From Barthelona sp. PCE (lineage: Eukaryota): a stretch of DNA of 64,000 nucleotides. The stretch covers positions 868,001-932,000 of the forward strand of contig JAUFOR010000003.1 of assembly GCA_040285745.1 (NCBI GenBank), read 5' to 3'. The notes beneath the pieces were generated by a model that had not been told where the DNA came from, made no database searches, and saw only the letters and a list, made by a program, of their open reading frames with translations. Below, one piece after another: positions 5,342 through 59,494 of this stretch (positions are counted from its first letter, which is position 1; each line of letters begins with the position of its first letter). Made by a program: the position numbers and the translations under genes.

Positions 5342-6094
5342 TTAACTCTCATCCTTTGGCTCAGGCTCAGCATCATCAACATTCGACTGCCTCTTCCTCA
5401 TAACATAAACATAAAAATAGGAAGATGGATTAGACGGATCATCTGTGGCGAGGGCCTTGGGGATCGTCTTGGTCTCTGTTGTCCAGTTTAAGCCATGACG
5501 AGAGAAGTGATCCAGTCGGGAATCAGGTGTTCCATAAGAAATGCAAATAAAGACGCCACCGGGCTTCAGGACACGCTGGACCTCCTTGTTCATGAGGTAG
5601 GCATTGTCAAATGACTCACGTCCACATAATAATGCATCCAGAGTAGCTTTATCGACTACAACATCGAAACTCTCGTCATCGAATGTCATGCGGCGGGTAT
5701 CCATCACCTGGAAAGTAAGCTCAGGCTGATCAGCATACTTTTGCTGCATCTGATGAACCACAGTTTCTGAGATATCAATGTTTGTAACGTTTTTGTAGCC
5801 GTCATCATATAGTTGTGTTGCCATACGGGAGTTACCACATCCCACATGCAGAATTTTTGAGCCTGAGGACAAATAAGGTCTCAAAATATCTGCGCAGTTG
5901 ACTAAAGTGCAATACCAGTCAAAATTGGAACTAGAATCCTTCTGATAACGCTAAATGTAAGTAGATGTATAAGAATAATACTTTAGATGTCGTTCATTGC
6001 GAAGAAATTTGAACATAACTCACAAAATGAACGCATCCATACTAACTATAAGACATACTTCCTCCCAATAAGCAGGTTTTCCGTACTCTGGCAT
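5342..6094 (-). CDS. METTL13/EEF1AKMT4-like class I SAM methyltransferase; exons 6094-6059 and 5950-5342
   Basis: Spliced N-terminus MPEYGKPAYWEE|RYQKDSSSNFDWY restores the family YW..RY/FDWY motif; VGCGNS, DKATLDAL, LKPGG. Confidence 0.88.
5951..6058 (-). other. Spliceosomal intron, 108 nt, with internal hairpin
   Basis: GTATGT...TACTTAC-ATTTAG; removal joins conserved coding motifs in frame. Confidence 0.9.
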
Positions 6095-17229: not shown

Positions 17230-19095
17230 ATGCCCAGACGAATTATTTTTAATGAACATGCTCACAAAGATTATGAAAATTCTGAGTTTTGTGTATCTGA
17301 AGTGAAGAATCATTTTACACTGATCAAAAACCCACAGCCTGCATCATTTATTAATTGCAACCAGTTTATTTTGTTCCAAAAGTCATCTTATCCAATAGAA
17401 TTTGGTGAATTTCAAGGAAAGAAAAAGATACACAGGTGTTGGCAAGATACTACAACTTACAATTCTCTTTTAAATCTCCGCTACAAGCCTGAATGCATCA
17501 TACCACCTCTCAAAAATGGTGACAGATGGCGTCACAACATTTGGTTCATGGAGTTTCCATCATTGTAGATAACCAACAACATAACTTTAACCTTTCCAAC
17601 AGATGAGATTTACTGCCTTTCGAGATCTTCCTTTTTATTCGTGATATTCAGTAAGAATACCATTATTAAGAGAGTTTATGAAAGCAACTACTCGTCATAC
17701 ACTGAGTTTGATCTTACTGAGCTCATTAATCATCCCGTTGACTTCTACTGGACGGATTCCCCTGTTGAATCTTTCATCCCTGGTGGTGTAGCGCTTTCAG
17801 GGGGCATTTTTTTTTTCAACGACGCAAGATTTATTCCTTGTGATGAGGTGCTTTCTTGCTGCGCAAACATAACTGCTGCTATCGTACGTAACAGGGTGTG
17901 TGAGGAGGAGGTTACGTATCTGTACACAGAGTACGATGCGTTGCCTTTCGTAACAGACAAAATCATTCCTTCCCGAGTTGCTTTACTTTTTGCAACAGAA
18001 GGACTCTCCAAGTTTACATTCATGTCGGCAAAGAAATATGCCAATATGATACTAACTGACAATGGAACTACCAATAGTATTGGTGAGATTCCACCAAGCA
18101 TGGACTACATCTGCTGCGAGTTATCTTTTCCTTTTGAATACAGTAGCCGTTTGTACTCGTTTGACAATTTGTCATTCAAGACATTTATTCCTAAATCAAA
18201 GGAAGACGTACTGATGATGCTGCCCAAGTATCAATCCCCTCTTTTTTTCAATGATCATACAATTTTTTTCTCATCAAGAATGACGAAATCATGGCCTACT
18301 TTATTTCTGCTTGACGTAAATGAGATACATGTGTTTCCTAATATTAATTCACAAGACACAATTATCAAGATTGACCCCTGTCAGTGTTTCAGTGCAAGTT
18401 ATCGTTTCGCAATAGTTGGCACCAATAATATCAACCAACAGGTACTTGTTTCTGATAGAAATACTGAAATTACTGATATAGTGTCTGAATCCGATAACTA
18501 TGATAGTGAGAACACGCATCATATAATTAAAAAGCATAATAGATCGTTTTTGTTGAACAACATTGAATATCACACTGCAGACGAGATTATAAACTTCACA
18601 TTCTCAGGAGATTACCTGTTTGTGACACTTTATGATTACACAACCAATGTTTATTATATTTCAAATGGCACACCAGAATTGATCAAGAACATTGATTCGG
18701 AGTTGTCGTTTAATCGTTGGGACCCACATGTAGCATATGATGTAACAACTCGTGAGTTGGTACTCTTTGACAGTGATTTTAATCGTATTTCAAGTTTTAC
18801 TTCTCCATCTCCTGTGGCAAGTAGTACTTTTTCTGGACCTCGTTCTTTTTTTTACAGGAAAGAAGTCTATCATTGTGATTTTGAAAATGGTATATTACAA
18901 TCGGTTCCGCACTCTTCATTTAGAGAATTTTATTCAGATGTTTTTTACCAAACTAATATTAGGAACGAAAAAATGATTATTAAGAAATTTAATGCTACAT
19001 CATTTGATGATGTTGAGATAGAAGAGTTTGATATACTCAAATTTATTCATACTGCCAATATAATTCACTTTCCTGATGTTTGGGATGGTAAGTAA
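17230..19095 (+). CDS. Hypothetical ~620 aa beta-rich protein interrupted by a single in-frame TAG at 17566-17568 (pseudogene, readthrough or atypical intron)
   Basis: ORFs 17230-17568 and 17641-19095 are in the same frame with only one stop between them. Confidence 0.6.
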
Positions 19096-22186: not shown

Positions 22187-22373
22187 AAATATCAGATAAG
22201 GTAAGGTAAAAATCAGTAAACCGCAATTGTGACTTCACAGGGGCTGAGTTCTCTCGGATACATGCATGTTTACTGACAGATATCTAGTTGGATGGCGTGA
22301 ATAAGTTCCTAAGCTCGAGGTCGGGTAATTGAGTTCCCACCCCATAAAAAATAGTAAAAAAGAGAAATCCGGA

Positions 22374-23491: not shown

Positions 23492-23563
23492 GTCCCAATG
23501 GTGTAGTGGTATCTCGTTCCCTTAGGGTGGGAAAGGTCCTGGGTTCAATTCCCAGTTGGGACC
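23492..23563 (+). tRNA. tRNA-Pro (AGG)
   Basis: Acceptor GTCCCAA/TTGGGAC, anticodon arm TTCCC-TTAGGGT-GGGAA, T arm CTGGG-TTCAATT-CCCAG, C discriminator, downstream T-run. Confidence 0.92.
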
Positions 23564-23652
23564 AACTAACAATTTTTGAACTTGCAATTTTAAAGAACAT
23601 TTTAGACAAAGACAATGAACATTCACGAGAACATTTCTGTAATTCGGTATCA

Positions 23653-23724
23653 GACCCTATAGTATAATGGTCAGAACCACGGCCTCCAAAGCCGTAGATC
23701 TAGGTTCGATTCCTAGTGGGGTCA
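23653..23724 (+). tRNA. tRNA-Trp (CCA)
   Basis: Acceptor GACCCTA/TGGGGTC, anticodon arm ACGGC-CTCCAAA-GCCGT, T arm CTAGG-TTCGATT-CCTAG, downstream T-run. Confidence 0.92.
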
Positions 23725-25359: not shown

Positions 25360-27642
25360 TTAGAAGATCTGACTGAAGCCCTCGTTGTCGAGCTCACCTT
25401 CATATTCAAGGTACTTGATAAATTCATCGTACTCATTCAGAAGAATTGCGTTGAACTTAGCATGTACATTCTTCCATAGATCAGCAGTCTCAGGAATCCC
25501 TTCAGGGATTCTGCAAAGAATGGGGCCAACTAGAACAGACATGGAGTCCAGACTCATGGAGTTCTTCTCCTTGTGCAAGTCAACCTGTTTGAGCAAAGAA
25601 AAATAGCAGCTGACAATGGTTCTTGAGAGCTCATTCTCGACCAGACCTTCATATTCATGAGTACCAGGTTCATAATTGAGTAAGGCCTCGATGTTGACAA
25701 AACCGTTTGGTTCTGAACGGAGGAGATGGTGGATCATATTAGACACGTAGATGGGATCAATTTCTTCGTTCAAAGGAAGAGAGAGACACTCCAACTGGGG
25801 AATCATCGAGTCGCGGTGCGTATTGACGATCGATGACCTGAAGATCATTGATTTCTCCATTCCGTTACGGTACATCCAGCCGCACAGCTTATCGAACAAG
25901 ACAGGAACATCGTTGGGATTGAGAGGCCAGTGCTCGGCCGGAACAAAATAGTGCGGAACTTGAGCTAGCGGGAGTTCGAAGGTTTCTTCAACGTGGAATT
26001 TGCCTGCAATGGCATCATTTGCAGGAAGATACTCAAGAGGTAGACCCAGGCCGTCTGGGAGGACAGAGAAATCTGAGGTGTTTGATATCTGTGTGTACTT
26101 CTCCCAGAACTTGCGAGAAACAAAAGGACGTGAGACGGTGAGCACGAAACGGGTCCAGAGGGAAGGGTTGACGCAGTACAGTTTCTTGATCATCTTCCTC
26201 GTCCTTCTGTTTAGCTTGGAGTAAAAGGATCTAAATTCTCCAAAGGATAAGCTCGTGGATTGACCAGCTGTTGAATTAAAGAAGAGAACGACGTAGGGGT
26301 GCTTGCTGAGGACAAAAAACTGACGGATAAGAAGATTGAAGAAATCTGCAGCAGAGCATCGAACTCGGGGACCAAGAATAACCAAAACGGGTAATCCTTC
26401 TTCAGTGTACCCGCCCATATAACATGCCAGTAGGTTCTGAGCTGGTTTAACGTCAGAACGGAGAGAGTTCATGAGGGCAGCCTCGAACTCTTGCTCGGTT
26501 TCATCGTTCATATACAGCTCGTCCTCAAAACGGCGTTCGCTTAACGGAGAAACGACCTCGTCAAGGGTGAACTCGCGTTGACGAGTCATAACAGGAGTTC
26601 CAATGCCGGCCGCATCAGGAAGAAGGGGAGTGGTGATAGCTTCCTCAATAAGCTCATTATCAATGGTTTCCTCGATATCTTCAACTGGCTCCTCAATAAC
26701 AATAGGCTCAGCAACTGGCTCTGGTTCAGGTTCTTCGACAACCTCCTCAACAACTGGCTCGGGTTCAGGTTCTTCGACAACCTCCTCAACAACTGGCTCT
26801 GGTTCAGGTTCTTCGACAACCTCCTCAACAACTGGCTCGGGTTCAGGTTCTTCGACAACCTCCTCAGCAACTGGCTCGGGTTCAGGTTCTTCGACAACCT
26901 CCTCAACAACTGGCTCGGGTTCAGGTTCTTCGACAACCTCCTCAGCAACTGGCTCTGGTTCAGGTTCTTCAACAACCTCCTCAACAACTGGCTCGGGTTC
27001 AGGTTCTTCAACAACCTCCTCAACAACTGGCTCGGGTTCAGGTTCTTCGACAACCTCCTCAGCAACTGGCTCTGGTTCAGGTTCTTCAACAACCTCCTCA
27101 ACAACTGGCTCGGGTTCAGGTTCTTCGACAACCTCCTCAACAACTGGCTCGGGTTCAGGTTCTTCGACAACCTCCTCAACAACTGGCTCGGGTTCAGGTT
27201 CTTCGACAACCTCCTCAACAACTGGCTCGGGTTCAGGTTCTTCAACAACCTCCTCAACAACTTCTGGGGCAGACTCTTCAGTTTGCTCCTCAGACTCAGA
27301 TATAGGGACGGTTTCAACCTCAGATTGCTCTTGAGTTTCAGTGACATTCACTTCTTCTTTTTGAGGTGCTTCTTCAACATTTTGCTGAATTTCGACCTCA
27401 ACAGCTTCAACCTCAGCCTTAGCGGAAGCTTCAGCTTCAGAGTTAACCTCAACAGGTGTTTCAACAGTTTCCTCACCAACTACAGGTTCTTCAACGGCTA
27501 CATCAGGAGTATTGTTCTGATTTTGACCATTCATGTTATTGTTACGGTTGTTGCGCTTATTTTTCTTATTCTTGTTTCTGTTTCTGTTATTTTTACGACC
27601 TAAGTATTAGAAATTTCCACGATGTGATGTAAAAATACCCAT
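25360..27642 (-). CDS. BCH/CRAL-TRIO + RhoGAP protein with acidic tandem repeat; exons 27642-27639 and 27599-25360
   Basis: Spliced start MGRKNNRN...; [21 protein letters not shown] (BCH); [28 protein letters not shown] (RhoGAP). Confidence 0.8.
26708..27262. repeat. Coding minisatellite, 39-nt unit x14 encoding (V/A)[12 protein letters not shown]
   Basis: Near-identical tandem copies of ctcaacaactggctcgggttcaggttcttcgacaacctc. Confidence 0.95.
27600..27638 (-). other. Spliceosomal intron, 39 nt
   Basis: ATGG|GTATTT...TTCTAAT-ACTTAG|GT CGT; joins ATG to the otherwise start-less upstream extension of the RhoGAP frame. Confidence 0.8.
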
Positions 27643-29567: not shown

Positions 29568-29850
29568 ATGAACACTGATCTTCTTCATCCTGATGCCGTT
29601 AGCGAGGCTAACACTCACAAGCTCAAGCGTTTGGTGCCCACTCCTAACTCCGTCTTCTTGGATGCCAAGTGTGCTTCTTGTGGTACTATGTATGTTCTTT
29701 TACATTTTAGGGGCTCTAACCTTTAGTAACTGCGTCTTCTCACACGCTACTACCACCATTCACTGCCAACAATGTCAAGCTCTCATCTGTACTCCTACTG
29801 GTGGCCGTTCTGAGTTTGCTAAGAACGTCGCTTGCCGTCAGCGTAACTAG
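29568..29850 (+). CDS. RPS27: 40S ribosomal protein S27 (eS27); exons 29568-29689 and 29727-29850
   Basis: MNTDLLHP...HKLKRLVPTPNSVFLDAKCASC...VFSHATT..C..C...CTPTGG after splicing. Confidence 0.95.
29690..29726 (+). other. Spliceosomal intron, 37 nt
   Basis: GTATGT...CTCTAAC-CTTTAG; required to keep the eS27 frame. Confidence 0.93.
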
Positions 29851-39661: not shown

Positions 39662-39981
39662 GTATGGTTGATTTTCCTCATAGTTCATCTGTTTTTACAT
39701 GCGCATTAGACTCAAATATATGTACAATAAGCTTAAAACGTTTTGTTTCGTAGAGGTTTCATTAAAACTATGTTTCTAACCGAGATAGCAGTATTTAATG
39801 CAAGCATAGCACACAGTCAAGTGGTTAGTGTCACACACGCGTGGCATTTTTGCACCATATGCAAAGCATGTAGATTTTGTCATTTACTTGCGATTCTTAC
39901 AGTTTTTGCATTGTTACACAGTATATAATGAGCTGCATCTAAACAGAAATGGGGGTACACGTTGTGTTTACTAACATTAAG
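39662..39981 (+). other. Putative 5'-UTR intron of RPL21, 320 nt, highly structured
   Basis: AAG|GTATGG after a pyrimidine tract; TACTAAC-ATTAAG 7 nt before the ATG; long-range complementarity between its ends. Confidence 0.65.
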
Positions 39982-40633: not shown

Positions 40634-42135
40634 ATGCCCATTAAGGTATAGTTTTTAATTGGGTGACATGTTCTAACATTTAGGCACCTCATCGTTTAAG
40701 CACAAGCGGATTTGGCAGGGATCGCACGCAAAATGGTAACGTTAGCTATTCTGTTCCTTATAGCCCTTCAGTTGTACGCAGAAAAGAATCCACAGTCACA
40801 AAGATCGCCCGTGAGGTGCTTGATAAGCGTGAAGCTTTAACCTCTATTCAAAATGCAGTCGCGCCCAATGGACAAATGTCATCTACCCAATTCAGAAGTG
40901 CTTTGAGGACATCAGGCGTCGACCTCACCACATTAGCTATTGATAGAGCTGTGAATTATGCCTCACAAAATGGTGTTGTTGATTTGCCTGCTTTCATGCA
41001 CAAACTTGAGGAAGCAGATATTTGTACCGTCCCTGAGCGCATTCGCAGGGAGGCTCAAGTTACATCACTACCTGATGAGAATACCGTGTCTTCTTTTAAT
41101 GTCAAACATGACCCCAAATCACGTGTTCTTGAAAGATTGCGTGACAAGGTTTACTTTAACAACTCAAAGCTCAGTGAAGCGTTCATGGATATGGATGATG
41201 ATGGAGATCACTACATCTCGCGAGTGGAGATGAAGCAGCACCTAAATCAATTACTTGCTCCTGCACCGGAGGAGGACGCAGCAGTGGACAGCATCATAAA
41301 CGATCTTTGCACCGAGAACAAGGAAATAGTTAAGTTCAACGATTTTGCAAAGGTTATCGAACCTCCGTATCTCAGCAGCCCCGTCATTGGTTACAACCCT
41401 AGGGAACCAGTTGAAACCCGCCCCGTCGCACCCCGTGCACAGTATAAGCGCGATGACTTCGGAAGAATCAATGTAATGAGGAACAGACATGTACACCGCT
41501 CACTGAGTTCAGAGCTCCTGGATTTAAATAATCCTACGAGCATCGCACACTCCTTCGAGGCACTTGACAGCGGTAAAGGCAGTGTTTCAGAAGGCGAATT
41601 CAAGCAGGCACTGAGCGCTCTCGGTGTTCGCAACCTTTCCGGTCACATGGCTATTGCTCGTGATGTTGCCCAGCTTGATAGTGGGTACTTTGACTACAAG
41701 CGCTATCTGAATCACATCGGAGCGGCAACAGGTATTGAGAGCGTCATACCAGCCAGCTCTCGTGTCAGTCGCCCTCCACGTGCTCTTCAGGATCACGGCC
41801 CTCTGCTGCAGCCCAAGGATCCCTCCCCGATCAAGAATCCCTCCAGGATCTTAGAGTCGCAGGTGGATGATATTATTCAGCAAAAGATTCCACCGGTCCC
41901 TATTCCTGCACCACAGACCGCATATGCATCTCCTCGCCCCGAGTGGATGAGTTGGTCGAACCCTGACGATTACACACACCCACAACAGCCTAAATCGACA
42001 AAGAAGCGACGAGTGTCTTCTGCCTATGACTCATCCAGCATTTCAAGCGTATTGACCACAGAGCCCGCTGAAATACCGCAATATACACCGCGTAGACGAT
42101 CGTTTAGACCAAAAGACACACTTACTCTTTATTAG
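40634..42135 (+). CDS. EF-hand protein; exons 40634-40645 and 40684-42135
   Basis: DMDDDGDHYISRVE and LDSGKGSVSEGEF EF-hand-like loops; spliced start MPIK|APHRL in frame. Confidence 0.75.
40646..40683 (+). other. Spliceosomal intron, 38 nt
   Basis: GTATAG...TTCTAAC-ATTTAG; supplies ATG to the downstream ORF in frame. Confidence 0.85.
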
Positions 42136-45264: not shown

Positions 45265-45296
45265 CGTTTTTAACTTCTTTGTGATAGAGAAAACTA

Positions 45297-45689
45297 ATGG
45301 TTAGAATTAACACCCTCAACGACGCTCTGAACGCCATCGTCACCGCCGAAAGAAACGGCCGTCCCCAGGTTCTCATCCGTCCTGCCTCTAAGATCATCAT
45401 CCGCTTCCTTCGCGTCATGCAGAAGCACGGTTACATTGGTGACTTCGAGTTCATTGATGATCACCGCTCTGGTAAGATTGTTATCAACTTGCTTGGTCAC
45501 ATCAACAAGGCTGCCGTCATTTCTCCCCGTTTCGACGTCAAGGTCGCTGATATCGAGAAGTGGGTTGTCAACCTCCTCCCTTCCCGTCAGTTCGGTTACC
45601 TTGTTCTGTCTACTTCTCAAGGTATTATGGATCACATCGAGGCTCGTCACCGTCACCTTGGTGGTAAGATCCTTGGTTACTTTGCTTAA
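45297..45689 (+). CDS. RPS15A: 40S ribosomal protein S15a (uS8)
   Basis: [11 protein letters not shown]...[32 protein letters not shown]...LLPSRQFG...GGKILGYF. Confidence 0.97.
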
Positions 45690-46206: not shown

Positions 46207-46408
46207 AAAAAAAAAATTTTGAAAATAATGTAATGGGACTATGCAATGAATTCCAAAAGGTGGAGATACACAAGAAACGCTAATGCGTTTTACTAGCCGT
46301 TAAAAATGGTTGGAAAAAGACAAACAACAATTTTTTTGAAGGTACACAAAACATTCTCAAATGAACCTACGTTGCAGTTTATTAACATATATACACACGC
46401 CGATGTAC

Positions 46409-46999
46409 TTACTCTCCACGGAGTTGAGCGAGTCGGCTCTCAAGATCATCCTCTGAAACTTCTCCCTTATTGGAAAGAGTAGGGTTTAGAATCTGAAGAT
46501 TTGCATCCAAAACAATGTCCTTTTCTTCAGCGACTTCATGAATAAGGGCATCTACAGCATCTTGAGGGGTAGTTGTGGCGGTGGTTGAAACCATAGTCTC
46601 ATCCATAAAAGCAGCAGCCACATCTAGCTCTTCTGTGGCTTGCTCGAATGAGCCCATAGTTGCTGTGATTCTATTTAGATCCATAGATTTGAGAGCGGAA
46701 GAAAGGTTCTTTGTTACCTTGTTCATGGTCTGTGACATCTGATTTGTTCTATGGGCGTACTCCAAACGAGATTGAACAGCATCAATTCGGGAAGCGAGGG
46801 TTAAAAGTTGAACGCTTTCGTTCTTCTTTCTGATGGAGTTTTCAGCATGGATACGGGCAACATCAGCGTTACCGCGTTCTGTAGCTTTGAGGACTTTCTT
46901 GCGCTCAGCTTTGGCAGCTTTTTCAGCTTTCTTACTAGAACGAAGAAGCTGTTTGGAGGTAAATCTCATCTGGAAGAGTTGATCGGAAAGACTAGGCAT
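46409..46999 (-). CDS. CHMP1: ESCRT-III subunit CHMP1/Did2/Vps46
   Basis: LFQMRFTSKQL, ARIHAENSIRKKNE, ASRIDAV, TTPQDAVDALI, DDLESRLAQLR; ATG 46999. Confidence 0.93.
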   Translation of the reverse strand: MPSLSDQLFQMRFTSKQLLRSSKKAEKAAKAERKKVLKATERGNADVARIHAENSIRKKNESVQLLTLASRIDAVQSRLEYAHRTNQMSQTMNKVTKNLSSALKSMDLNRITATMGSFEQATEELDVAAAFMDETMVSTTATTTPQDAVDALIHEVAEEKDIVLDANLQILNPTLSNKGEVSEDDLESRLAQLRGE

Positions 47000-50868: not shown

Positions 50869-50932
50869 ATCGCCAGAAAGGGAAAGAAATGTGATAATGT
50901 GTTTTATTCTTCTTTCTGTGATTCTGGATTAA

Positions 50933-52390
50933 ATGTTGTCTGAATCAATATTATTTGTGGGTAAAAGTACACATATTAATGTGAAGTTGCGGAAATTCTT
51001 TCAGGTATCATTCTTTAGTATTGTTCCTATTTTAGTTGTATTATTTTCTATAAATTTGGGTCCTGAACGTCCACAACTGGACGAATGCTCCATGGTGTGT
51101 GTCAATTCTTCTTACGAAATTCTTCATGTTCCAGGTAATTGGCCTACTGGGTATGAAGTATGGTTCTATCGTGAACAGGGACTGGATGCCACGGAACCGA
51201 CCTCGAACAAGAATAATCAGCCAATATTTTTCTTCCCAGGGCATCGTGGTTCATATAAGCAAGGTCGGTTTTTAGCTTCCGTTTCCGCACATAAAAATGC
51301 ACTACAGAACTTCTATCTACTCCATTTCAACGGGGAACTATCGGCGTTCAACCCTGCTGTTGTCCGTCGACAGGCTGCTTTTGCTGATGCTGCTATAAGT
51401 ACTGTTCTCGATCAGTATCCAGAGGGAACAATACCTAAGGGCGTGTCCCACTCGATGGGCGCGCGGGTGATGAGGATGGTTGGGATTGATGGTGTATCAT
51501 TGGCGGGAGTAACTCTTCGATCTCCAATCCCAAACTTAGACGTTTTTCCTGGCAACAGTGATGCACACGTGACCAATATATGTATTCACGACGACCTCTT
51601 GGCAAACGAGAACGTGTGTGCTGGTGGAGCTTATGTGCAATATGCTGAAGATTTTGGCGTCAGAGTTGGTCATAATGAAATCTTACGTTGCAAAGAGCTG
51701 CTAGTTGGTGTCGTTGACATGCTCCAGAGCGGAGATAAAGTCAAAGAGACACATTTTGAGGAAGGAGTTTGGTCAACAAAGGTTTTCAGAAAGAGCTATC
51801 TTGTGATACTGGATTACATCAGCCTTTACTCGTGGTTGCACGGCTGCAACATATTTCTTCAGCTGGCGTTCTGGATAGGCGTTTCAGTGAGCTATACTAA
51901 GACAATGTACTACCACATCTTGGGTGTCTCCACATACTTTTTCTATCAACTGATCCATGTACTTCCCATCTGTCGCATGCGACACTGGGTTCAACGGGTG
52001 ATATTTGTCCCCTGTCTGATTATGGTTGTCTTCCAAGACGACTACATTCCGTTTCTTTGTGTTTCTGTGTTGTGGTGCGTGCGTCTACTTGGATATAGAC
52101 GCCGTCGCAGAGCAGAGGCGGAAGAAAATGTTTTGTTCCTCTTCTCAACGATCGCAGCAGCGTTACAGATTGTTTCATCACTACACTCATATTTTGTGGG
52201 TGGATTTAGCATATCGTCTCTTTCAATTAATACTTTGGCGGCCTTGGTTGTATTGTTCCCTGTGCGTCACTACTGTCTGCCCCCATTATCGCATGTCTTG
52301 GTGATATTAGGTAGCGCTAACCAGAACTGGGATGCTGTGAGCATTTCTATGTGCTTGACATTCGTCATCAGCTTGCTATTTGGACTGTAA
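50933..52390 (+). CDS. PGAP1: GPI inositol-deacylase PGAP1/Bst1-like, short form
   Basis: PIFFFPGHRGSYKQGR, HFNGELSAF, SHSMG lipase motif, C-terminal TM helices. Confidence 0.8.
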   Translation: MLSESILFVGKSTHINVKLRKFFQVSFFSIVPILVVLFSINLGPERPQLDECSMVCVNSSYEILHVPGNWPTGYEVWFYREQGLDATEPTSNKNNQPIFFFPGHRGSYKQGRFLASVSAHKNALQNFYLLHFNGELSAFNPAVVRRQAAFADAAISTVLDQYPEGTIPKGVSHSMGARVMRMVGIDGVSLAGVTLRSPIPNLDVFPGNSDAHVTNICIHDDLLANENVCAGGAYVQYAEDFGVRVGHNEILRCKELLVGVVDMLQSGDKVKETHFEEGVWSTKVFRKSYLVILDYISLYSWLHGCNIFLQLAFWIGVSVSYTKTMYYHILGVSTYFFYQLIHVLPICRMRHWVQRVIFVPCLIMVVFQDDYIPFLCVSVLWCVRLLGYRRRRRAEAEENVLFLFSTIAAALQIVSSLHSYFVGGFSISSLSINTLAALVVLFPVRHYCLPPLSHVLVILGSANQNWDAVSISMCLTFVISLLFGL

Positions 52391-52395
52391 ATTTT

Positions 52396-55300
52396 TTACA
52401 TATGCTCCTTCTTAAATCTTCTATACAGCAATTGTAACACACGAACAACAACTTCTCCATCACCCTCAAGAATACTGTAAATTGTGGAATCATCGCACAA
52501 AGAATCAGGTAACTTGAGAGCGTTGAGGGCAGTTTCAATATTATACATGCAATGTGCACGGCACTCGGGTGACTCCACATAGCTGAGATGCAAGGTTGGG
52601 GTCAATCGGTTAGCAAGGTCACACAAAAGTGTTCCATTTGCCCAATGCCTACCAGACTCGACAGCATAAGGTGTTACGCGCATACCGAGCCCTCTGAGCC
52701 ACTCTGCCATTTCATGGTTCGGTGCGTTACCGACGTGTGTCGAGTTAGGAGTCTTTGGTATCACCATTGAAGCTCCAAGCACTGCAGGCATCCTTGGAGT
52801 GGATGGAACAATCGTCGTGGTTGTCTTTGACAGCCATCCATTCTTCGACGACTTTGATGTGCGAATTGAATCAACCAGGGTTTGTAGTCTGTTCTCGATT
52901 GATGATACAACGTCTTTCTTCTTCTCAATATTCGCTACGTTCATCTTGGGCGCAACGAGACGTGTCGTTGCGGAGAAGGCCTGACGGATTCGTGCAATGG
53001 TTCTGACGATTAGTACTAGATCTCCCTGCAGCATTTTGTCATAATCACCAATGGCGATTATCTTTTCAATTTGCAACTTCTCAACAAGTTGGTTGATGTG
53101 GCGCACCTCCATCTTAGACAGGCTATTATATATGGGTACAATCATTCCGACAGAGATATCACCCCAATCGATGAAAAGAGAGTGGACATTGAGTGTTTCG
53201 CTGATGGAGTTCATCAGCTCCTCGATACTTTCCAGCCTGACACACGTTGAGCCTGGATATCCTTTGATCCACCGCTTGTGGGGCTCAACGTTCCTCACAA
53301 GACAACGCAGTAGTTCCCAAATACAACCACCACTTATGAGCTCGTCAACGCTCAGAAGCGATGTTGGTATCTGCAAATCGGACTGGCGGATCGCCTTGAA
53401 GCACCTGTTGTAGCGTGTCTTAACATCTTTAATAGATCGCAAGACCTTTAAATCTTTAACTTGTACTCGGTGCAGTCGGAGCAGATCAAGAACCACCTTT
53501 CCATTGCGAAGCGGATCCATGAGGATGGGAAGTTCGGCCATATGTCGTTCAGAAAGCAGAGACATACCGCATTTGATGAGCGTGAGTCTGATGTCCTTTC
53601 GTTCGTTTTCATCACACATATCGACAACAAGAGGCTTAGTGAGCACGCTTAAATAGATATTGTCGCTTGCCTCAACGGTTGTGCTCGCAAATTCAGTCTT
53701 AAGACTCTCCATCTCCTCGGTCTTCCGCCTCCTTCTTCGTTTAGCACCACCAAACGTCTTCTCGAAGTGGCGCTGGATATCATACAGCAACCCAAACACA
53801 GTGTCTGTGTCGCCATCGACCATACCATCGCTGTTGAAGACGTGCTCACTTCTAAACTTTTTGTCCTTCTTGAGAATCTCAAACCCCTTACGTATATTGA
53901 TCATGCGCTGTCCACGGGTCTTTGGGGCTTTGTACGTGCCCTTGATATCCACCAGACGGTAGGCGTTCATTAAAAACATGTTCAGTAGAAGCCCTTGTGA
54001 GAAGTCGTGGGCAAAGTCTTCTCTGTAAGGCATATGGTCGAGTTGAAGTGCGCGTCCCTCGCTGCGGACAATGAACCAGCGTACGAGGTCTTGCTCCTCG
54101 TTCGTGAGCGAAGTGAGGTTATCAGGACGCTTATCCTCAACAACATGCATCCTTCGTGCTGGACCGGAACCAAGAGATATGGTGCTCTTTGTTTTTTTAA
54201 GCGCGTCTTTCTCAAACACCGATTGGATGTTGTCGATCACGCTCCTCTTGTGTTGTGTTTCTTTCATGGTTGCGGTTAAACCTTCTTCATCGAATCGAAT
54301 TCTTGCCTTTTCCCTTGTCTTTGTCTTCTTGTCGGCTCTGTTCAGCTTCTCGGGTCTGTTCAGCTTCTCAGCCGGTGTCCTGTTTAGGTTAGAAACGGTC
54401 TTGTTGAACTGCTTTAGATATCCAAACTGTTCCTTCTGCTTTCTCAGCTTCGTGATGTGGTATTCGTCAACAATTTGTTGTGTGATCTCAGCGTCATCAG
54501 TCGCAAGCACGTCGCGAGAGGAAACATTAAACGCACTGGTCACAGGATATTCGTGGGGAAGAGGAGGGTGTTTAGGTCTTTGCCATCTTCGGTTGCCACG
54601 CTTCATTTTCCCACGAAGTTCTGCTGCAACAATAATGGGACTCTTGTATGCATATCCTCCACCAACGCGTTTTCGTGGACTTTCACCTGTCAGAGCAATA
54701 TCACGACGTGTATGCTTGAACTGACTTTGTAAAAGAGAAAGTCCGGCCTTCTGGGTTGGTGTGAGTCTCTGGGTTTTGCGTATACTGCGCTTTTTCTTCT
54801 CTTTCTTGATTCGTCTGAATCCTTGTGGCTGTTTAGTACTTTCCAGGTCTTCCAATGTTAGCATTGATTTTCTTAATGGAGAAGGGTCAGTAATATGCCT
54901 TGCCATGCGGGGATTTTCGTCCATAGCAATAATAGGTGCCATACCCTCCTTGAAAAAATACTTCAAAAATGCGAAAAAGTAGAAAACTACACTAAATTCA
55001 GGTTTCATAAAAAGCTCAATTACGTCTTCGTTGAGGAAAATGCTTGGGAACTCTTGACTGTACTCAGTTGATGATAATAACTGAAGAACAACAAACCAAT
55101 GTTCATAAGCTGTCGCAAAAGATTCAGGATCTGGTATGTTTAATAGCTGACATGTGATAAAATATGCTGCTTTGCCTGAGGCAAGGTCTGCAATGTCAGA
55201 AGCGAGTAAACAGGCAGCAGAATTAAACGAATTTATCCAATACAGCATCTTTTGAACGGCAGTTCCGCTTGGGAGCGGCAAATCGGAGAACGTGAGTTCA

Positions 55301-55414
55301 TTATAGTTTCCAAATTCCAGAATGTTAGTTTCATAAAAGGCGCGTTGTCTTAAAACATACTTTTAATGGTGTTAAATGTGTTGGTGATTGCGGTAAACTG
55401 GCGTAGTCGGTCAT
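52396..55414 (-). CDS. Multi calponin-homology (CH)-like domain protein; proposed exons 55414-55361 and 55317-52396
   Basis: DFSQGLLL...NIRKGFEIL, LRNGKVVLDLL, WANGTLLCDLANRL...NIETALNAL CH-like motifs; upstream ATG exon joined via atypical intron. Confidence 0.7.
55318..55360 (-). other. Putative non-canonical GT-TG intron, 43 nt
   Basis: GTATGT...AACTAAC-ATTCTG|GAA; same branch spacing as the other introns and restores frame. Confidence 0.6.
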
Positions 55415-55504
55415 ATAGTCAAAGTTAAATGTTCATAAATTGTTGAAACGGAGATAAACGCGTTACGACTTTTACGACTTCTTTTAACCTTTAACTTTCA
55501 TAAG

Positions 55505-56587
55505 ATGGAGGACGATATCGTTACACTCCAAGGGTTGGTTTACGACATACTTCAGAAAAAGGGTCAGATCGACCAGATACGAGCACATGTTCGAAGCTGT
55601 ATTTATTCAACAGTTGCGGAAGACAAAGGCGAGGTTGCTGTCCAGGATAAACCCAAAATTGAGAACAAAGAAGAGTTTAAAATCATATGTACAATGTTTA
55701 TGAAATTTCTCAAACAACACGACCTCCCATTCACTTTTGAAACTATGGAAAAGGAATGCGGCATGACGATCAGCGACCAAGAGATTGAAAATTCTCTATG
55801 CATTGAAGATGTGTTGCATAATCCTGATATTGCAAGAAAAGTGTCAGAGAGTCAAGAAACACAGGCTATCGAGAATGAAATATCAGAGAATGAGGATAAT
55901 GCAACCATATCTCCTCAATTTACTAACCTTGCACTATGCAATGATTTGGTTGATCAGAAATTGGTTAATTTCAGCATTGATGAACCAGCCGTCGTCCAAC
56001 AACCTACCACACACTACGTATTCAAGCAGAGTGAGGATGAGAACGCTGAGGTTCTCACATTTGACGATACCAATGAGTTTATGATGATGGAGGAAAGTAC
56101 ACCCATGGCCATCGTGACGAAGCCTGAACCGGTTGAAGAGGAGATGGAAGAACCAGCTGTGGAAGAACCAGAAGTACAGGAGCCTGAGGAAGAACCAGTG
56201 CAACACGAGATCAAAAAGAAAAAACGCACGATGGTTATGCCTTCATTCACTGAATTACCTCCGATGGACGAGCTACCCGCTATTGATGACCTGCCTCCAA
56301 TTGAAAACAACGTAAAACCGTTGGAGGAGGGATTTGCAGTGGTCGACGAGATTAAGGAACAAGAGGTTGAAGTGGGACAGATGCATGGTTCTCCCATTGC
56401 GGCTGATGAATCTATTTCCCCAAATATCAGCACGCTCTCTTTCGAGCTTGAGGACCTGATTGCAAATGTTGATAATATCAGCAGTGGAACGTCGTCAGAA
56501 TCGGAAGATGATAAGAATGTGTCTAAATACGAGTTCCCAGCTAATCAAATGAGACTGGCAGACTACGACATCATAATAAATCTATGA
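55505..56587 (+). CDS. FOP/CEP43/TONNEAU1-family centrosomal protein (TOF-LisH N-terminus)
   Basis: LQGLVYDILQKKGQIDQIRAHVRSCIY and FMKFL....LPFT..TMEKE; acidic tail. Confidence 0.7.
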   Translation: MEDDIVTLQGLVYDILQKKGQIDQIRAHVRSCIYSTVAEDKGEVAVQDKPKIENKEEFKIICTMFMKFLKQHDLPFTFETMEKECGMTISDQEIENSLCIEDVLHNPDIARKVSESQETQAIENEISENEDNATISPQFTNLALCNDLVDQKLVNFSIDEPAVVQQPTTHYVFKQSEDENAEVLTFDDTNEFMMMEESTPMAIVTKPEPVEEEMEEPAVEEPEVQEPEEEPVQHEIKKKKRTMVMPSFTELPPMDELPAIDDLPPIENNVKPLEEGFAVVDEIKEQEVEVGQMHGSPIAADESISPNISTLSFELEDLIANVDNISSGTSSESEDDKNVSKYEFPANQMRLADYDIIINL

Positions 56588-56603: not shown

Positions 56604-59060
56604 TTACTTACCGCTGCGAAGTCTTTCGGCGAACTGGAGACAATGCTTTGTTTCATCGTAGTTCTCTGGGTTCACATGACAAACATACGTAACCTTTGTT
56701 TGAGAGGTGATCATGTCCGTCAGAGGGTTGACAATGGACGGTGGAAGACCATTGCTCAGGTTATGGATGCAATTGTGCAGCTCCGAATAAAACGTGTGCG
56801 TCTTGCAAGGATCGATGATGATGACTGTATGCATGACTGTTGCCCCCGTGGCGTTGTTTACGCCTGCAAAGCGGGTGAGAACAACGCGGGTGAAGTCCTC
56901 TTTTTGCTCTGTCATTTGAATCTCGTTGAATACCTGTTCTACATTTTCTTGTGTAACCTCAACGTCTTCAAGGGCGTTAATCGATGTTACATCCTTGCGT
57001 AGGACATCGTGCAGGACAGTTGACTTGTTGAAATCAAAGCAGCTGACAAAGACATCGAGATCATACACTGTTTCATCAACTGTTTCGAAAAAGCGCTGAA
57101 TTAATGACACAAAGACACCTGCATCGCTACTAGTTCCGTTTAGGGAGTAAGACTTGCCTGAATTGCGTCCACCATCGAGCAGAATGACTCGGCAACTGTC
57201 ACCAAGAGTGAGAAAGTCGCGCTCGATAGCTTCTGTAATCAACTCCCTTGTTGGGGTGAAGGGAGGAAGCACGGTTGCAAACTGGAAGTCCCTCATATCA
57301 TCGTGGAGATGCACAGTACACGTGTCTGTTACTTCTATTGATTTTGTCTCGTGTGCCTTCACTCTTACAATGACTTCCAACTCGTCGCGGTCTGATGTGG
57401 CACGTTTTATAGCAGAGGGTGTCTCTGTGATTGTCTTGAGATCGAACGTGGTTGCAGGTTCAAGATGTGTGACAGCAAGATCGTCTATACTCAAGTCGGC
57501 CGTTGCATTCTGTGACAAAAGATTCGTTGACGCCTCTGTCGTTGCTACCTCCTCGAGTTGTGCTTCCTCTTCCTCCTCGTATGGGTCAACGGGGATAGGT
57601 CTCGATCGCAAAACCGTGACATGCCCGAGGTCGACGTTTGGTGATCGATCGTCGACACTGGAAATCTGTTTAGGCGACTCAAAAACAGCAGAACGTCCTG
57701 TTTCATACATGAACGTGTTAAAGACACGGGAGGCACCGAAACCGTTAGAGAAACGAGCGTATCTGAAGAACTGAGTCAAAGTCATTTCAACGTTCACCAG
57801 CTTGTTTGCGTACGCCTCGAGCATATCCACGACAACGTTGCGCATGCGCACATTCTCCTCCTTCACCTGCTTTATACCGTCTAAAAGGAACCTGACAGAA
57901 TTCTTTAAGTTGGCCTTCTCCCGTTTCACGCGGTTCATGGACGCGACAATGGGGGCGATGGCGCTGTCATGTGATATATTGGCGCCCAGTGCGTTTGCTA
58001 AAAGACGTTTAATGGTGGCTTTGATGGGTCGCATATCAGGATCGACCTCTAGATCATTGAGATAGCTCATTGCTTCGCGGACGTCTCTCTCCAGCGATCC
58101 CAACCCGTCGTCGGTGCTCGGTGTTTCATCCCTCTTCATCTTCATTTCTTGCACAAGATCATATATCTGCTTTAAAAGTGAACGCTCGAATGGATCTACA
58201 CGGGGACTGAGCATGTCCTTTCCGCTGAGGACACGCTTAATCTCCTTCTTGAACGAACTGTGCCTGTTTTGTAATCGTTTTAGCTTATCATTGAGTGACA
58301 TCGCACCCTCTGCTTCTCTTGCTGATATTTCCTCTCTCAACTCGGAAAGTGTAACCTCTGCCTCTTCTTTATCTGCGAGGGCATCTTCCCTCTCAGCAAC
58401 AACAACCGCTAGTTCATTGGATAAATCTTCAACACGAGCATTAAGGTCGGAAAGTTCTTCATCCTTGTCATCAACCAATAATTGCAACGATGAGCTTGTG
58501 TGCTTTGTCTCACGAAGTGTCCTTTCGACGGCCTTCACCTCTCCTACTCGCTGTAGTAGATTATCAATTGTTGTGAGTGCGTCCTCAGCCGTCTCGGCTG
58601 CGATACCATGTGAAGAGAGCACATTCAAAAATTCGTGCAAGTCGTTACCACTCTCGACTGAGCGGCTGGTGGCATCAACACCCTTCACTGACAATGCAGC
58701 AACCTGCTCCTCGAGCTCTCGAATACGATCCTCGTAATCCGCAGCCATATTGTCCCTCTCATCGAATAAACGGTCGCATTCCTCCTGGTACTGCTTCGTC
58801 TCAGCCTCTATTTCCCCCTTGTTGAGTCCACATGTGGGGCAAGCTGCTGGTGCTTGCAACTGCGTCTTTTGCCGTCTTCGATCAAGGTACATCTGATAAG
58901 CCTGCTGTTCGAACTGTGCCCACTGCTCTTGGGATACAAGGTTGCTCTTTACCCTGTTCAGATAATCTTGCTCCTCAGAGTTTAGTCTGTTGGATACTTT
59001 GGATGAATGCGTACGTCGCAACAGAGTTAATATATGATCTTTGTTGTATTGAAGCGACAT
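56604..59060 (-). CDS. Coiled-coil protein with degenerate C-terminal kinesin motor-like domain
   Basis: VIVRVK, FQFATV, GGRNSGKSYSL, HVNP...ETKHCLQFAERLR; switch I/II motifs missing; likely ATG 59060. Confidence 0.75.
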   Translation of the reverse strand: MSLQYNKDHILTLLRRTHSSKVSNRLNSEEQDYLNRVKSNLVSQEQWAQFEQQAYQMYLDRRRQKTQLQAPAACPTCGLNKGEIEAETKQYQEECDRLFDERDNMAADYEDRIRELEEQVAALSVKGVDATSRSVESGNDLHEFLNVLSSHGIAAETAEDALTTIDNLLQRVGEVKAVERTLRETKHTSSSLQLLVDDKDEELSDLNARVEDLSNELAVVVAEREDALADKEEAEVTLSELREEISAREAEGAMSLNDKLKRLQNRHSSFKKEIKRVLSGKDMLSPRVDPFERSLLKQIYDLVQEMKMKRDETPSTDDGLGSLERDVREAMSYLNDLEVDPDMRPIKATIKRLLANALGANISHDSAIAPIVASMNRVKREKANLKNSVRFLLDGIKQVKEENVRMRNVVVDMLEAYANKLVNVEMTLTQFFRYARFSNGFGASRVFNTFMYETGRSAVFESPKQISSVDDRSPNVDLGHVTVLRSRPIPVDPYEEEEEAQLEEVATTEASTNLLSQNATADLSIDDLAVTHLEPATTFDLKTITETPSAIKRATSDRDELEVIVRVKAHETKSIEVTDTCTVHLHDDMRDFQFATVLPPFTPTRELITEAIERDFLTLGDSCRVILLDGGRNSGKSYSLNGTSSDAGVFVSLIQRFFETVDETVYDLDVFVSCFDFNKSTVLHDVLRKDVTSINALEDVEVTQENVEQVFNEIQMTEQKEDFTRVVLTRFAGVNNATGATVMHTVIIIDPCKTHTFYSELHNCIHNLSNGLPPSIVNPLTDMITSQTKVTYVCHVNPENYDETKHCLQFAERLRSGK

Positions 59061-59494
59061 AGTCCCCAAACTGTGATTAAATGCAAAGAAAAAGTTTAAA
59101 AAAATGGAACGAGATTCAAAATGAAAAGTATGTGTGTTATACGAGCTAAAATAAGACAATAGACACATGTACGCTTATAGATCCTTCATTATTATTACCA
59201 AATCTAGGATAACTTTTGTGCTCTGGTTTATGGATTTGGTTTTTTTCCTTTCTTTTAATGTGCAACCAATTCATCGGGGACATCGTGTAGACTGTTCAAA
59301 TTGTGTCAGCTAATCCCACAAAAATAAAACAGGCAGTTCTAGATTGTTCTAAAAATGGATCAATGGTTGAAAGAACGCCATGTGCACGATTAACTTTCTG
59401 AAACGCAATCGTAATGAAGGATATACTCAAGAAAAACAAGTGATTTCAATTTTTATACCTTTTCTCTCATTTTTGAAACTTTTATTTCTGCATA

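Follow-up and report, generated by a model that had tools for sequence, protein, structure and literature searches.

A candidate GT–TG intron that follows the local branch-point spacing at the probable 5' end of a calponin-homology gene in Barthelona sp. PCE

The Barthelona clade is described as sister to Fornicata within Metamonada, and the genome of Barthelona sp. PCE as a 10.2 Mb Nanopore assembly in 8 contigs, polished with Illumina reads at 308x coverage; both poly-A RNA and Illumina DNA were sequenced (PMC11316075). The word "intron" occurs once in the text of that paper (PMC11316075). The stretch analysed here, referred to below as the window, comprises 64 kb of one contig, with about 31 long ORFs, some intergenic gaps of around 5 nt, and a GC content of about 0.43. 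Gaps of about 5 nt separate ORFs at 50928–50933 and 52390–52396, and divergent starts lie 64–90 nt apart, an extreme compaction for a free-living phagotroph. The leucyl-tRNA synthetase (LeuRS) encoded in the window is about 42% identical to proteins from across eukaryotes and, like a comparison of RPL21 with the PDB, says little about taxonomic placement. Genes for tRNA-Pro(AGG) and tRNA-Trp(CCA), 90 nt apart, occupy 23492–23724 on the plus strand, within an AT-rich region at 20–24 kb (GC 0.35).

The gene of interest lies on the minus strand and encodes a protein with a C-terminal calponin-homology domain. The match to PF00307 scores 49.5 bits against a gathering cutoff of 26, which places the protein among those with this domain. 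The features of the locus are as follows:

52399–55248, minus strand: annotated coding sequence for a protein of 950 aa (P0001), which begins MLYWINSF and matches the deposited protein exactly; stop codon at 52396–52398
52411–52647, minus strand: C-terminal calponin-homology domain, PF00307 (E 5.5e-13; residues 891–969 of the 973-aa reading)
55249–55317, minus strand: 23 open codons, EFGNYNELTFSDLPLPSGTAVQK, the putative 5' part of exon 2 (GC 0.46)
55318–55360, minus strand: candidate 43-nt intron with GT...TG ends (GC 0.35)
55318–55319, minus strand: terminal dinucleotide TG, AG in all control introns; C at −3 and G at +1 (C-T-G/G)
55324–55329, minus strand: branch motif ACTAAC (AACTAAC at 55330–55324), with the branch A, 55325, at −8 from the cut
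55355–55360, minus strand: 5' splice site GTATGT, the same hexamer that opens the RPS27 and MT introns (below)
55361–55414, minus strand: putative exon 1, ATG plus 17 codons, MTDYASLPQSPTHLTPLK, phase 0
55415–55504, between the strands: 90-nt spacer separating the divergent ATG 55414 (minus) and ATG 55505 (plus), likely a shared promoter and 5'UTR region

Read on the minus strand, the ATG at 55414–55412 opens an 18-codon stretch that runs directly into GTATGT (55360–55355). Twenty-five bases separate this hexamer from ACTAAC, and the six bases that follow the branch motif, the last of them 55318, read ATTCTG. A cut after 55318 creates the junction K/EFGNYNELTFSDLPLPSG, which is in frame with the long ORF at 52396..55362 and leaves 973 codons from 55317 onward. 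This ORF is one base out of register with the frame of ATG 55414, and removal of the 43 nt restores the frame; without splicing, the frame from ATG 55414 meets a stop nine codons into the intron. The candidate is 5'-proximal, starting 54 nt after ATG 55414. An earlier note, made from the sequence alone, had described the short exon, the GTATGT, the AACTAAC, the ATTCTG and an in-frame join to an ORF of about 970 codons, and every one of these statements on the sequence was confirmed by re-reading.

The same note had counted five other introns in the window that end in AG where the candidate has TG. All five were found and serve here as controls:

5951–6058, minus strand: intron of the methyltransferase (MT) gene, GTATGT...CTTAC+ATTTAG, 108 nt, present in the deposited protein P0126
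27600–27638, minus strand: intron of the CRAL-TRIO/RhoGAP gene, ATGG/GTATTT...CTAAT+ACTTAG, 39 nt, phase 1
29690–29726, plus strand: RPS27 intron, GTATGT...CTAAC+CTTTAG, 37 nt, phase 2
39921–39981, plus strand: probable RPL21 intron in the 5'UTR, with the 3' motif ACTAAC+ATTAAG, 7 nt ahead of ATG 39989
40646–40683, plus strand: intron of the EF-hand gene, MPIK/GTATAG...CTAAC+ATTTAG, 38 nt; exon 1 encodes MPIK

These five share a common 3' structure: a yTnAy motif at −11 to −7, followed by four bases and AG, which puts the branch A at −8 in every case. Four of the five are backed by coding junctions, while the RPL21 5'UTR intron is only probable. For the MT intron, the 214 aa of P0126 equal 12 + 202 across the junction, with the N-terminus MPEYGKPAYWEE/RY, and the homologues P0127 and P0128 share this start. 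The window's own MT protein is deposited as "hypothetical protein PCE1_001355 [Barthelona sp. PCE]". In RPS27, the Pfam S27e match is split over two frames, and the exon-2 frame covers only positions 18–50 of the 55 in PF01667. The first-ATG translation of the RhoGAP ORF (25360–27606, minus strand) is absent from the protein collection because of the ATGG/ intron, and the first-ATG version of the EF-hand protein is likewise absent. For RPL21, the 5' end of the intron is uncertain and could be either GTATAT at 39921 or GTACAC at 39955. The 3' motif ahead of its ATG suggests a 5'UTR intron, comparable to the one described for Rps15 of S. vortens (PMC6679479).

The candidate resembles this set closely. 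The controls range from 37 to 108 nt and from 0.28 to 0.36 in GC, and the candidate, with 43 nt and 0.35, falls within both ranges; the three short controls, at 37–39 nt, are 5'-proximal as well. Its 3' end, CTAAC-ATTCTG, has the spacing of the controls, and three of the five also have ATT directly after the branch motif. What sets it apart is the C at −3 together with the T at −2. The features of the GT–TG element support its being an intron of the type used by Barthelona sp. PCE, and it is either a rare rule-breaking intron or one that was freshly broken.

Several other intron-like arrangements occur in the window. The plus strand over the MT intron (5951–6058) carries intron-like signals of its own, GTAAGT at 5957 and ACTAAC+TATAAG at 6041–6052. 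They follow from the minus-strand sequence: ACTTAC reads GTAAGT on the opposite strand, and what comes after the minus-strand GTATGT looks, in reverse complement, like a branch point with its AG. A plus-strand gene is not evident in this region. At 46293–46412 on the minus strand, a unit of about 120 nt, GTAAGT...TTTTTAAC+GGCTAG, has its branch A at −8. It begins within the last codons and stop of an Snf7 gene, the deposited protein of which is the unspliced form, and ends 87 nt upstream of ATG 46206 of a Siva-like gene (PF05458); it could be an intron in the 5'UTR of the Siva-like gene or in a 3'UTR, or it could create an alternative C-terminus. In the ORF at 17569..19095 on the plus strand, no ATG occurs before codon 151, and the protein that would start at this codon is absent from the protein collection. 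Just upstream, at 17516–17569, a unit reading ATG/GTGACA...TTGTAG, 50 nt long, ends exactly at the ORF boundary without a yTnAy at −11 to −7; it may be a second intron off the local rule, or the start may be uncertain. A kinesin-like ORF (56604–59174, minus strand) is also absent from the protein collection in its first-ATG translation, and a GTACAT...CTTAT+TTTAG unit with a spacing one base shorter overlaps that ATG. Finally, CTAAC+CATTAG at 45294–45304 on the minus strand lies antisense to the first codons of RPS15a with no 5' splice site nearby, and is probably a chance occurrence.

How readily such a unit arises by chance depends on how it is defined. GTATGT-N15-45-CTAAC occurs twice in the window, in RPS27 and in the candidate, against 0.68 expected, and this excess taken alone is weak evidence. 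A looser motif gave three real matches against 0.23 expected. A scan with a loose motif is too permissive: 2.7 frame-consistent chance candidates are expected, and a spurious TA-ended candidate appeared at 22261–22190. The strict test adds three conditions: the unit has to be at the 5' end of one of the 31 genes, exon 2 has to start within the open stretch that precedes the first ATG, and exon 2 has to continue the frame of an upstream ATG exon free of stops. With this combination of motif and frame consistency, at least one match was obtained in 26 of 3000 mononucleotide shuffles, an expectation of 0.0087 per window, or 0.052 if the frame requirement is dropped. Since the strict motif was picked after the candidate had been seen, the figure of 0.009 is optimistic. 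Even with a post hoc motif, chance is a poor explanation of the candidate.

Whether the element sits at the start of the gene was addressed with an upstream-versus-coding score, a 3-mer log-odds measure from 60 nt in each of 25 upstream regions, contrasted with coding sequence. Thirteen of the 25 training starts are verified by deposited proteins, and the other 12 are the first ATG in their ORF. In leave-one-out scoring, the true upstream regions ranged from −6.2 to 40.8; for coding windows, the median was −14.1 and the 95th percentile 8.3. ATG 55414 is preceded by 60 nt that score 12.6, the median of the 25 true upstream regions and a value reached by 2.4% of coding windows. In contrast, the 60 nt before the annotated ATG 55248, with a score of −19.6, fall under the lowest of the 25 true upstream regions and close to the coding median. 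The start at 55505 on the other side of the spacer agrees with its deposited protein, and a second verified divergent pair, 50868/50933, is 64 nt apart.

The composition of the two putative coding pieces is less uniform. The 23-codon extension has a codon score of 4.51, in the 27th percentile of in-frame windows, a value that 4% of off-frame open windows reach. Its score of 0.20 per codon is equalled or beaten by 5 of 20 open, presumably non-coding extensions elsewhere, and its GC of 0.46 is unlike that of any intron in the window. Exon 1 scores −2.67 in codon usage, in the 2nd percentile of in-frame windows, and only one of 25 real N-termini is as low; this is weak evidence against exon 1 being coding. 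Composition thus speaks for a gene start at 55414 and for coding sequence from 55317 onward, but exon 1 itself has no codon-usage support. In an unspliced mRNA, three AUGs (55414, 55334 and 55301) would precede the AUG at 55248, and the 950-codon ORF is nonetheless intact. The deposited model from ATG 55248 is probably 5'-truncated.

Comparison with other proteins adds little about the N-terminus. A word-indexed protein search with residues 1–300 returned only the protein itself, and so did a full HMMER search of 1.84 billion representatives with residues 1–200, in which the self match was aligned from residue 24. The cluster to which P0001 belongs has one member, and the protein collection contains no transcript-derived protein for the gene. 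A protein-based scan of metagenome contigs gave 589 pattern matches with no relative among them, and an exact 29-nt pattern that allowed any base at −2 had no match in these contigs. Against Pfam at E ≤10, the N-terminal 200 aa matched no family, the only sub-threshold hit being Edc3_linker, and the N-terminal 160 aa found a single chance-level match among PDB sequences (E 0.11). The ESM Atlas gave weak leads to LINES_N/LINES_C with low recognition. With no detectable homologue for the N-terminal 200 aa, neither exon 1 nor the extension draws support from an orthologue. A single-sequence AlphaFold model has a helix that starts at residue 20, four residues ahead of the annotated Met; with a mean pLDDT of 46, however, the model is too poor to assign the extension to a fold. 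None of the searches lent support to an N-terminal Hook/CH-type domain cut short by the annotated start, and this idea was dropped.

Two AG dinucleotides downstream of the branch motif could in principle serve as 3' ends in place of the TG:

55268–55269, minus strand: first AG downstream of the branch motif, giving a 93-nt intron that is out of frame, with a stop after 14 codons
55249–55250, minus strand: second downstream AG, giving a 112-nt GT–AG intron that is in frame and abuts ATG 55248

The earlier note had placed the next AG about 50 nt further on and out of frame. This holds for 55269–55268, which is 50 nt from the TG and 57 nt from the branch A, but the in-frame AG at 55250–55249 had been missed. 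Its reading of the anatomy stands, as the TG at 55318 is the only 3' end that fits the −8 rule and is also in frame; the claim that no in-frame AG was available was incomplete. No yTnAy is found at −11 to −7 of either distal AG (55268, 55249). Use of AG 55249 would also turn 69 nt into intron that are coding-like and have a GC of 0.46, versus 0.28–0.36 in the six intron units. On these observations, the GT–TG element is very probably a real intron unit, or was one until recently, at the true 5' end of its gene.

The deposited annotation bears on these choices in two ways. It includes the canonical 108-nt MT intron, yet there is no 968-aa model for the host gene, which speaks mildly against canonical junction reads at the locus. 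HISAT2, GeneMark-ET, AUGUSTUS and PASA build canonical introns only. These are the tools named for the Barthelona sp. PCE gene models (PMC11316075). A GT–TG intron would thus be invisible to them, and a start at 55248 is expected either way.

The reading that we tentatively prefer, while granting it somewhat less than an even chance, is that of a genuine intron in a 5'-truncated gene model, excised at the TG, perhaps weakly. Chief among the other readings is that of a dead or dying intron, in which a change from AG to TG abolished productive splicing. The protein, if made, would then start at ATG 55248 through a downstream transcription start, leaky scanning or reinitiation, and exon 1 and the extension would be relics. 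The deposited model does begin at 55248, exon 1 looks non-coding in codon usage, and the N-terminal tail has no homologue and may therefore be dispensable. Human mutants with AG changed to TG are not spliced at the TG (PMC2374985), and the Giardia Type-A intron with GT–AT ends is almost never spliced (PMC10711314). However, the remaining signals are perfectly kept and both frames are open, which would require that inactivation happened very recently. The stretch of 60 nt ahead of ATG 55248 is less upstream-like than any true upstream region, and the 950-codon ORF has stayed intact although retention puts three AUGs before its start. We regard inactivation as a serious alternative, if an unlikely one. 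Splicing to a distal AG is harder still to credit and has a low probability. At 55249 it would yield a protein MTDY...PLK/MLYWINSF from the 112-nt in-frame intron; at 55268 it would be out of frame, leaving exon 1 as an exon of the 5'UTR or as an upstream ORF with a regulatory role. In favour of this reading, both AGs are present, and the one at 55249 keeps the frame and adjoins the annotated Met. In yeast, loss of an AG usually activates another AG. The same is described for humans (PMC2374985). Against this, neither AG has the yTnAy that all five controls have at −11 to −7, the first is 57 nt away from the branch A where this lineage has a fixed spacing of 8 nt, the 69 nt to be included are coding-like in GC, k-mers and codons, and an annotation that accepts canonical introns has no 968-aa model.

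Three further readings dispense with a TG splice site by other means. Base 55319 could be an assembly error, or an allele or culture variant, with CAG as the true or common sequence and an ordinary GT–AG intron that the annotation missed. One substitution would restore the local consensus, and the assembly is Nanopore-based (PMC11316075), but polishing with 308x Illumina reads (PMC11316075) should leave residual substitutions very rare (an inferred rate), and a pipeline that built the 108-nt MT intron would probably have built this one too, had the RNA-seq used for annotation contained a canonical junction; we consider such an error rather improbable. That there is no intron, and that the 5'UTR or promoter ahead of a true start at ATG 55248 matches the signals by chance, gains something from the 0.68 expected occurrences of GTATGT-N15-45-CTAAC and from the 2.7 loose-motif chance candidates with their one spurious TA-ended case. 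It has to contend with the strict motif and frame being matched in only 26 of 3000 shuffles, and with a stretch before 55248 that is unlike any true upstream region, and it is very improbable. The least credible reading, with scarcely any probability, is a one-base insertion error in a T-run (e.g., 55356–55353) that splits a continuous ORF from ATG 55414, with no splicing at all. Nanopore assemblies are prone to homopolymer errors, and the shift from the exon-1 frame to the main frame is exactly one base between 55362 and 55334, where two T4 runs lie at 55356–55353 and 55338–55335. The stretch, however, has an intron-like GC of 0.35, and the error would require both a full intron motif arising by chance and an indel that survived the 308x Illumina polishing (PMC11316075).

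Under the preferred reading, excision at the TG, the element would be a spliceosomal intron near the 5' end of its gene, of the metamonad type with a fused branch point and 3' splice site, and the host gene would encode a product of about 990 aa with a C-terminal calponin-homology domain. The signals, their spacing and the frame are directly visible at the locus, as are agreement with the local rule and flanks that are upstream-like on one side and coding-like on the other. Transcription most likely starts just upstream of ATG 55414, which would open the 18-codon exon 1. U2 would pair with ACTAAC, and the second catalytic step would be directed, as in the other introns of the window, to the phosphate that lies 8 nt past the branch A; here, the target phosphate would follow TG, not AG. 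Ligation at the TG, possibly less efficient, would give an in-frame mRNA of 18 + 973 codons. Use of the TG, its efficiency and the site of the transcription start are the parts that we infer.

The earlier note had gone further in suggesting that this spliceosome sets the 3' site by distance and tolerates non-AG ends, which is plausible in view of the invariant spacing in related metamonads (PMC6679479) and of the Giardia intron with GT–AT ends (PMC10711314), although a single intron in a 64-kb window looks alike whether its TG is tolerated or was recently broken. In its strongest form, the barthelonid spliceosome would use a ruler from the branch adenosine alone, and a coding intron would be ligated constitutively at the TG as its only site; we think this rather unlikely. 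Such a sole TG site, if true, would imply a relaxed or rewired second-step check of the 3' splice site, involving Prp8, Prp18, Slu7, Prp22 and loss of U2AF35. A further point against the preferred reading is that AG is retained in each of the five controls, so that non-AG ends are not generally tolerated.

The terminal AG is among the most invariant signals of eukaryotic gene expression, and structural work explains it by non-Watson–Crick pairing of the 3' splice site AG with the G of the 5' splice site and the branch A. A TG end set by the 8-nt spacing, if true, would be a clean natural test of distance replacing sequence in 3' splice site selection, and it would point to second-step proofreading factors that are lost in reduced spliceosomes. 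In practical terms, genes in such genomes may be truncated by annotation pipelines that consider canonical introns only. Should the TG turn out to be a new lesion or an incorrect base, there would be nothing unusual in the finding.

Fused signals of this kind are described in Giardia, Trichomonas and Spironucleus, which have an invariant distance from branch point to 3' splice site and a fused motif with the consensus VCTRACACRCAG in Giardia and RCTAACAARHTAG in S. vortens (PMC6679479). Like the introns of these organisms, the candidate has a 5' site of the GTATGT type and a CTAAC at a fixed, short distance from the 3' end. The short introns of S. salmonicida are 43 nt, and 5'UTR introns occur in ribosomal-protein genes (PMC6679479); the candidate has exactly this length, the 5'-proximal position is shared as well, and RPL21 in the window has a probable 5'UTR intron. 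Judged by the metamonad pattern, the candidate has the GTATGT-like 5' site, the yTnAy spacing, the short length and the 5'-proximal position, and departs from it in the terminal AG, where it has TG at 55319–55318. The spacer also differs, being AYTTAG in the barthelonid introns, unlike the ACACAG of the other fused-motif metamonads, while the candidate ends in TG. By sequence, the barthelonid introns of the window fit the fused branch-point/3' splice site type with another spacer.

Non-AG ends have been met in this group of organisms before. Roy et al. are said to have described AT–AC splicing in Giardia in 2012. The only comparable case in Giardia is the Type-A intron of DinF, which has GT–AT ends and is reported as spliced in 23 of 70 transcriptomes, with an efficiency of 1.3% (PMC10711314). 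Like the candidate, it is short and motif-bearing, with a non-AG 3' end in a lineage of fixed spacing, and its splicing was detected in RNA-seq. It ends in AT, unlike the TG of the candidate, and its splicing looks noise-level, whereas the long reading of the candidate would depend on splicing.

The 3' sites of U12-type introns are chosen by distance from the branch site, and the U12 consensus has RTATCCTT as 5' site and TCCTTAAC as branch motif. The candidate reads GTATGTTTT and AACTAAC at these places, and a search of the 64-kb window against Rfam returned two tRNAs only, with no snRNA and no minor-spliceosome RNA. Strict spacing between branch and 3' splice site is otherwise a U12-type trait, according to the authors of the metamonad study (PMC6679479), and among U12-type introns with odd termini, 66 cases are listed, one of them GT–TG (Sheth et al. 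2006, PMC1557818); the GT–TG intron of ARS2 is conserved between human and mouse (PMC1557818). The candidate is thus like U12-type introns in its strict spacing and in the variety of terminal dinucleotides that they tolerate, and unlike them in that its signals, GTATGT and ACTAAC, are U2-type.

In humans, U2-type introns of 36 genes are described with TG as an alternative 3' end (Szafranski et al. 2007, PMC2374985). The human sites have a pyrimidine at −3 and a purine at +1 and tend toward first introns; they are reported as never constitutive and always ≤28 nt from an AG, and mutations from AG to TG activate other AGs (PMC2374985). The candidate shares the GT...TG termini, the pyrimidine at −3, the purine at +1 and the early-intron position of these sites. 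It has no partner AG within 28 nt, the nearest downstream AG being 50 nt away, and unlike in the human genes, the TG would be the sole productive site. A TG used as the only productive site, at a distance of 50 nt from any AG, would have no equal among these non-AG precedents.
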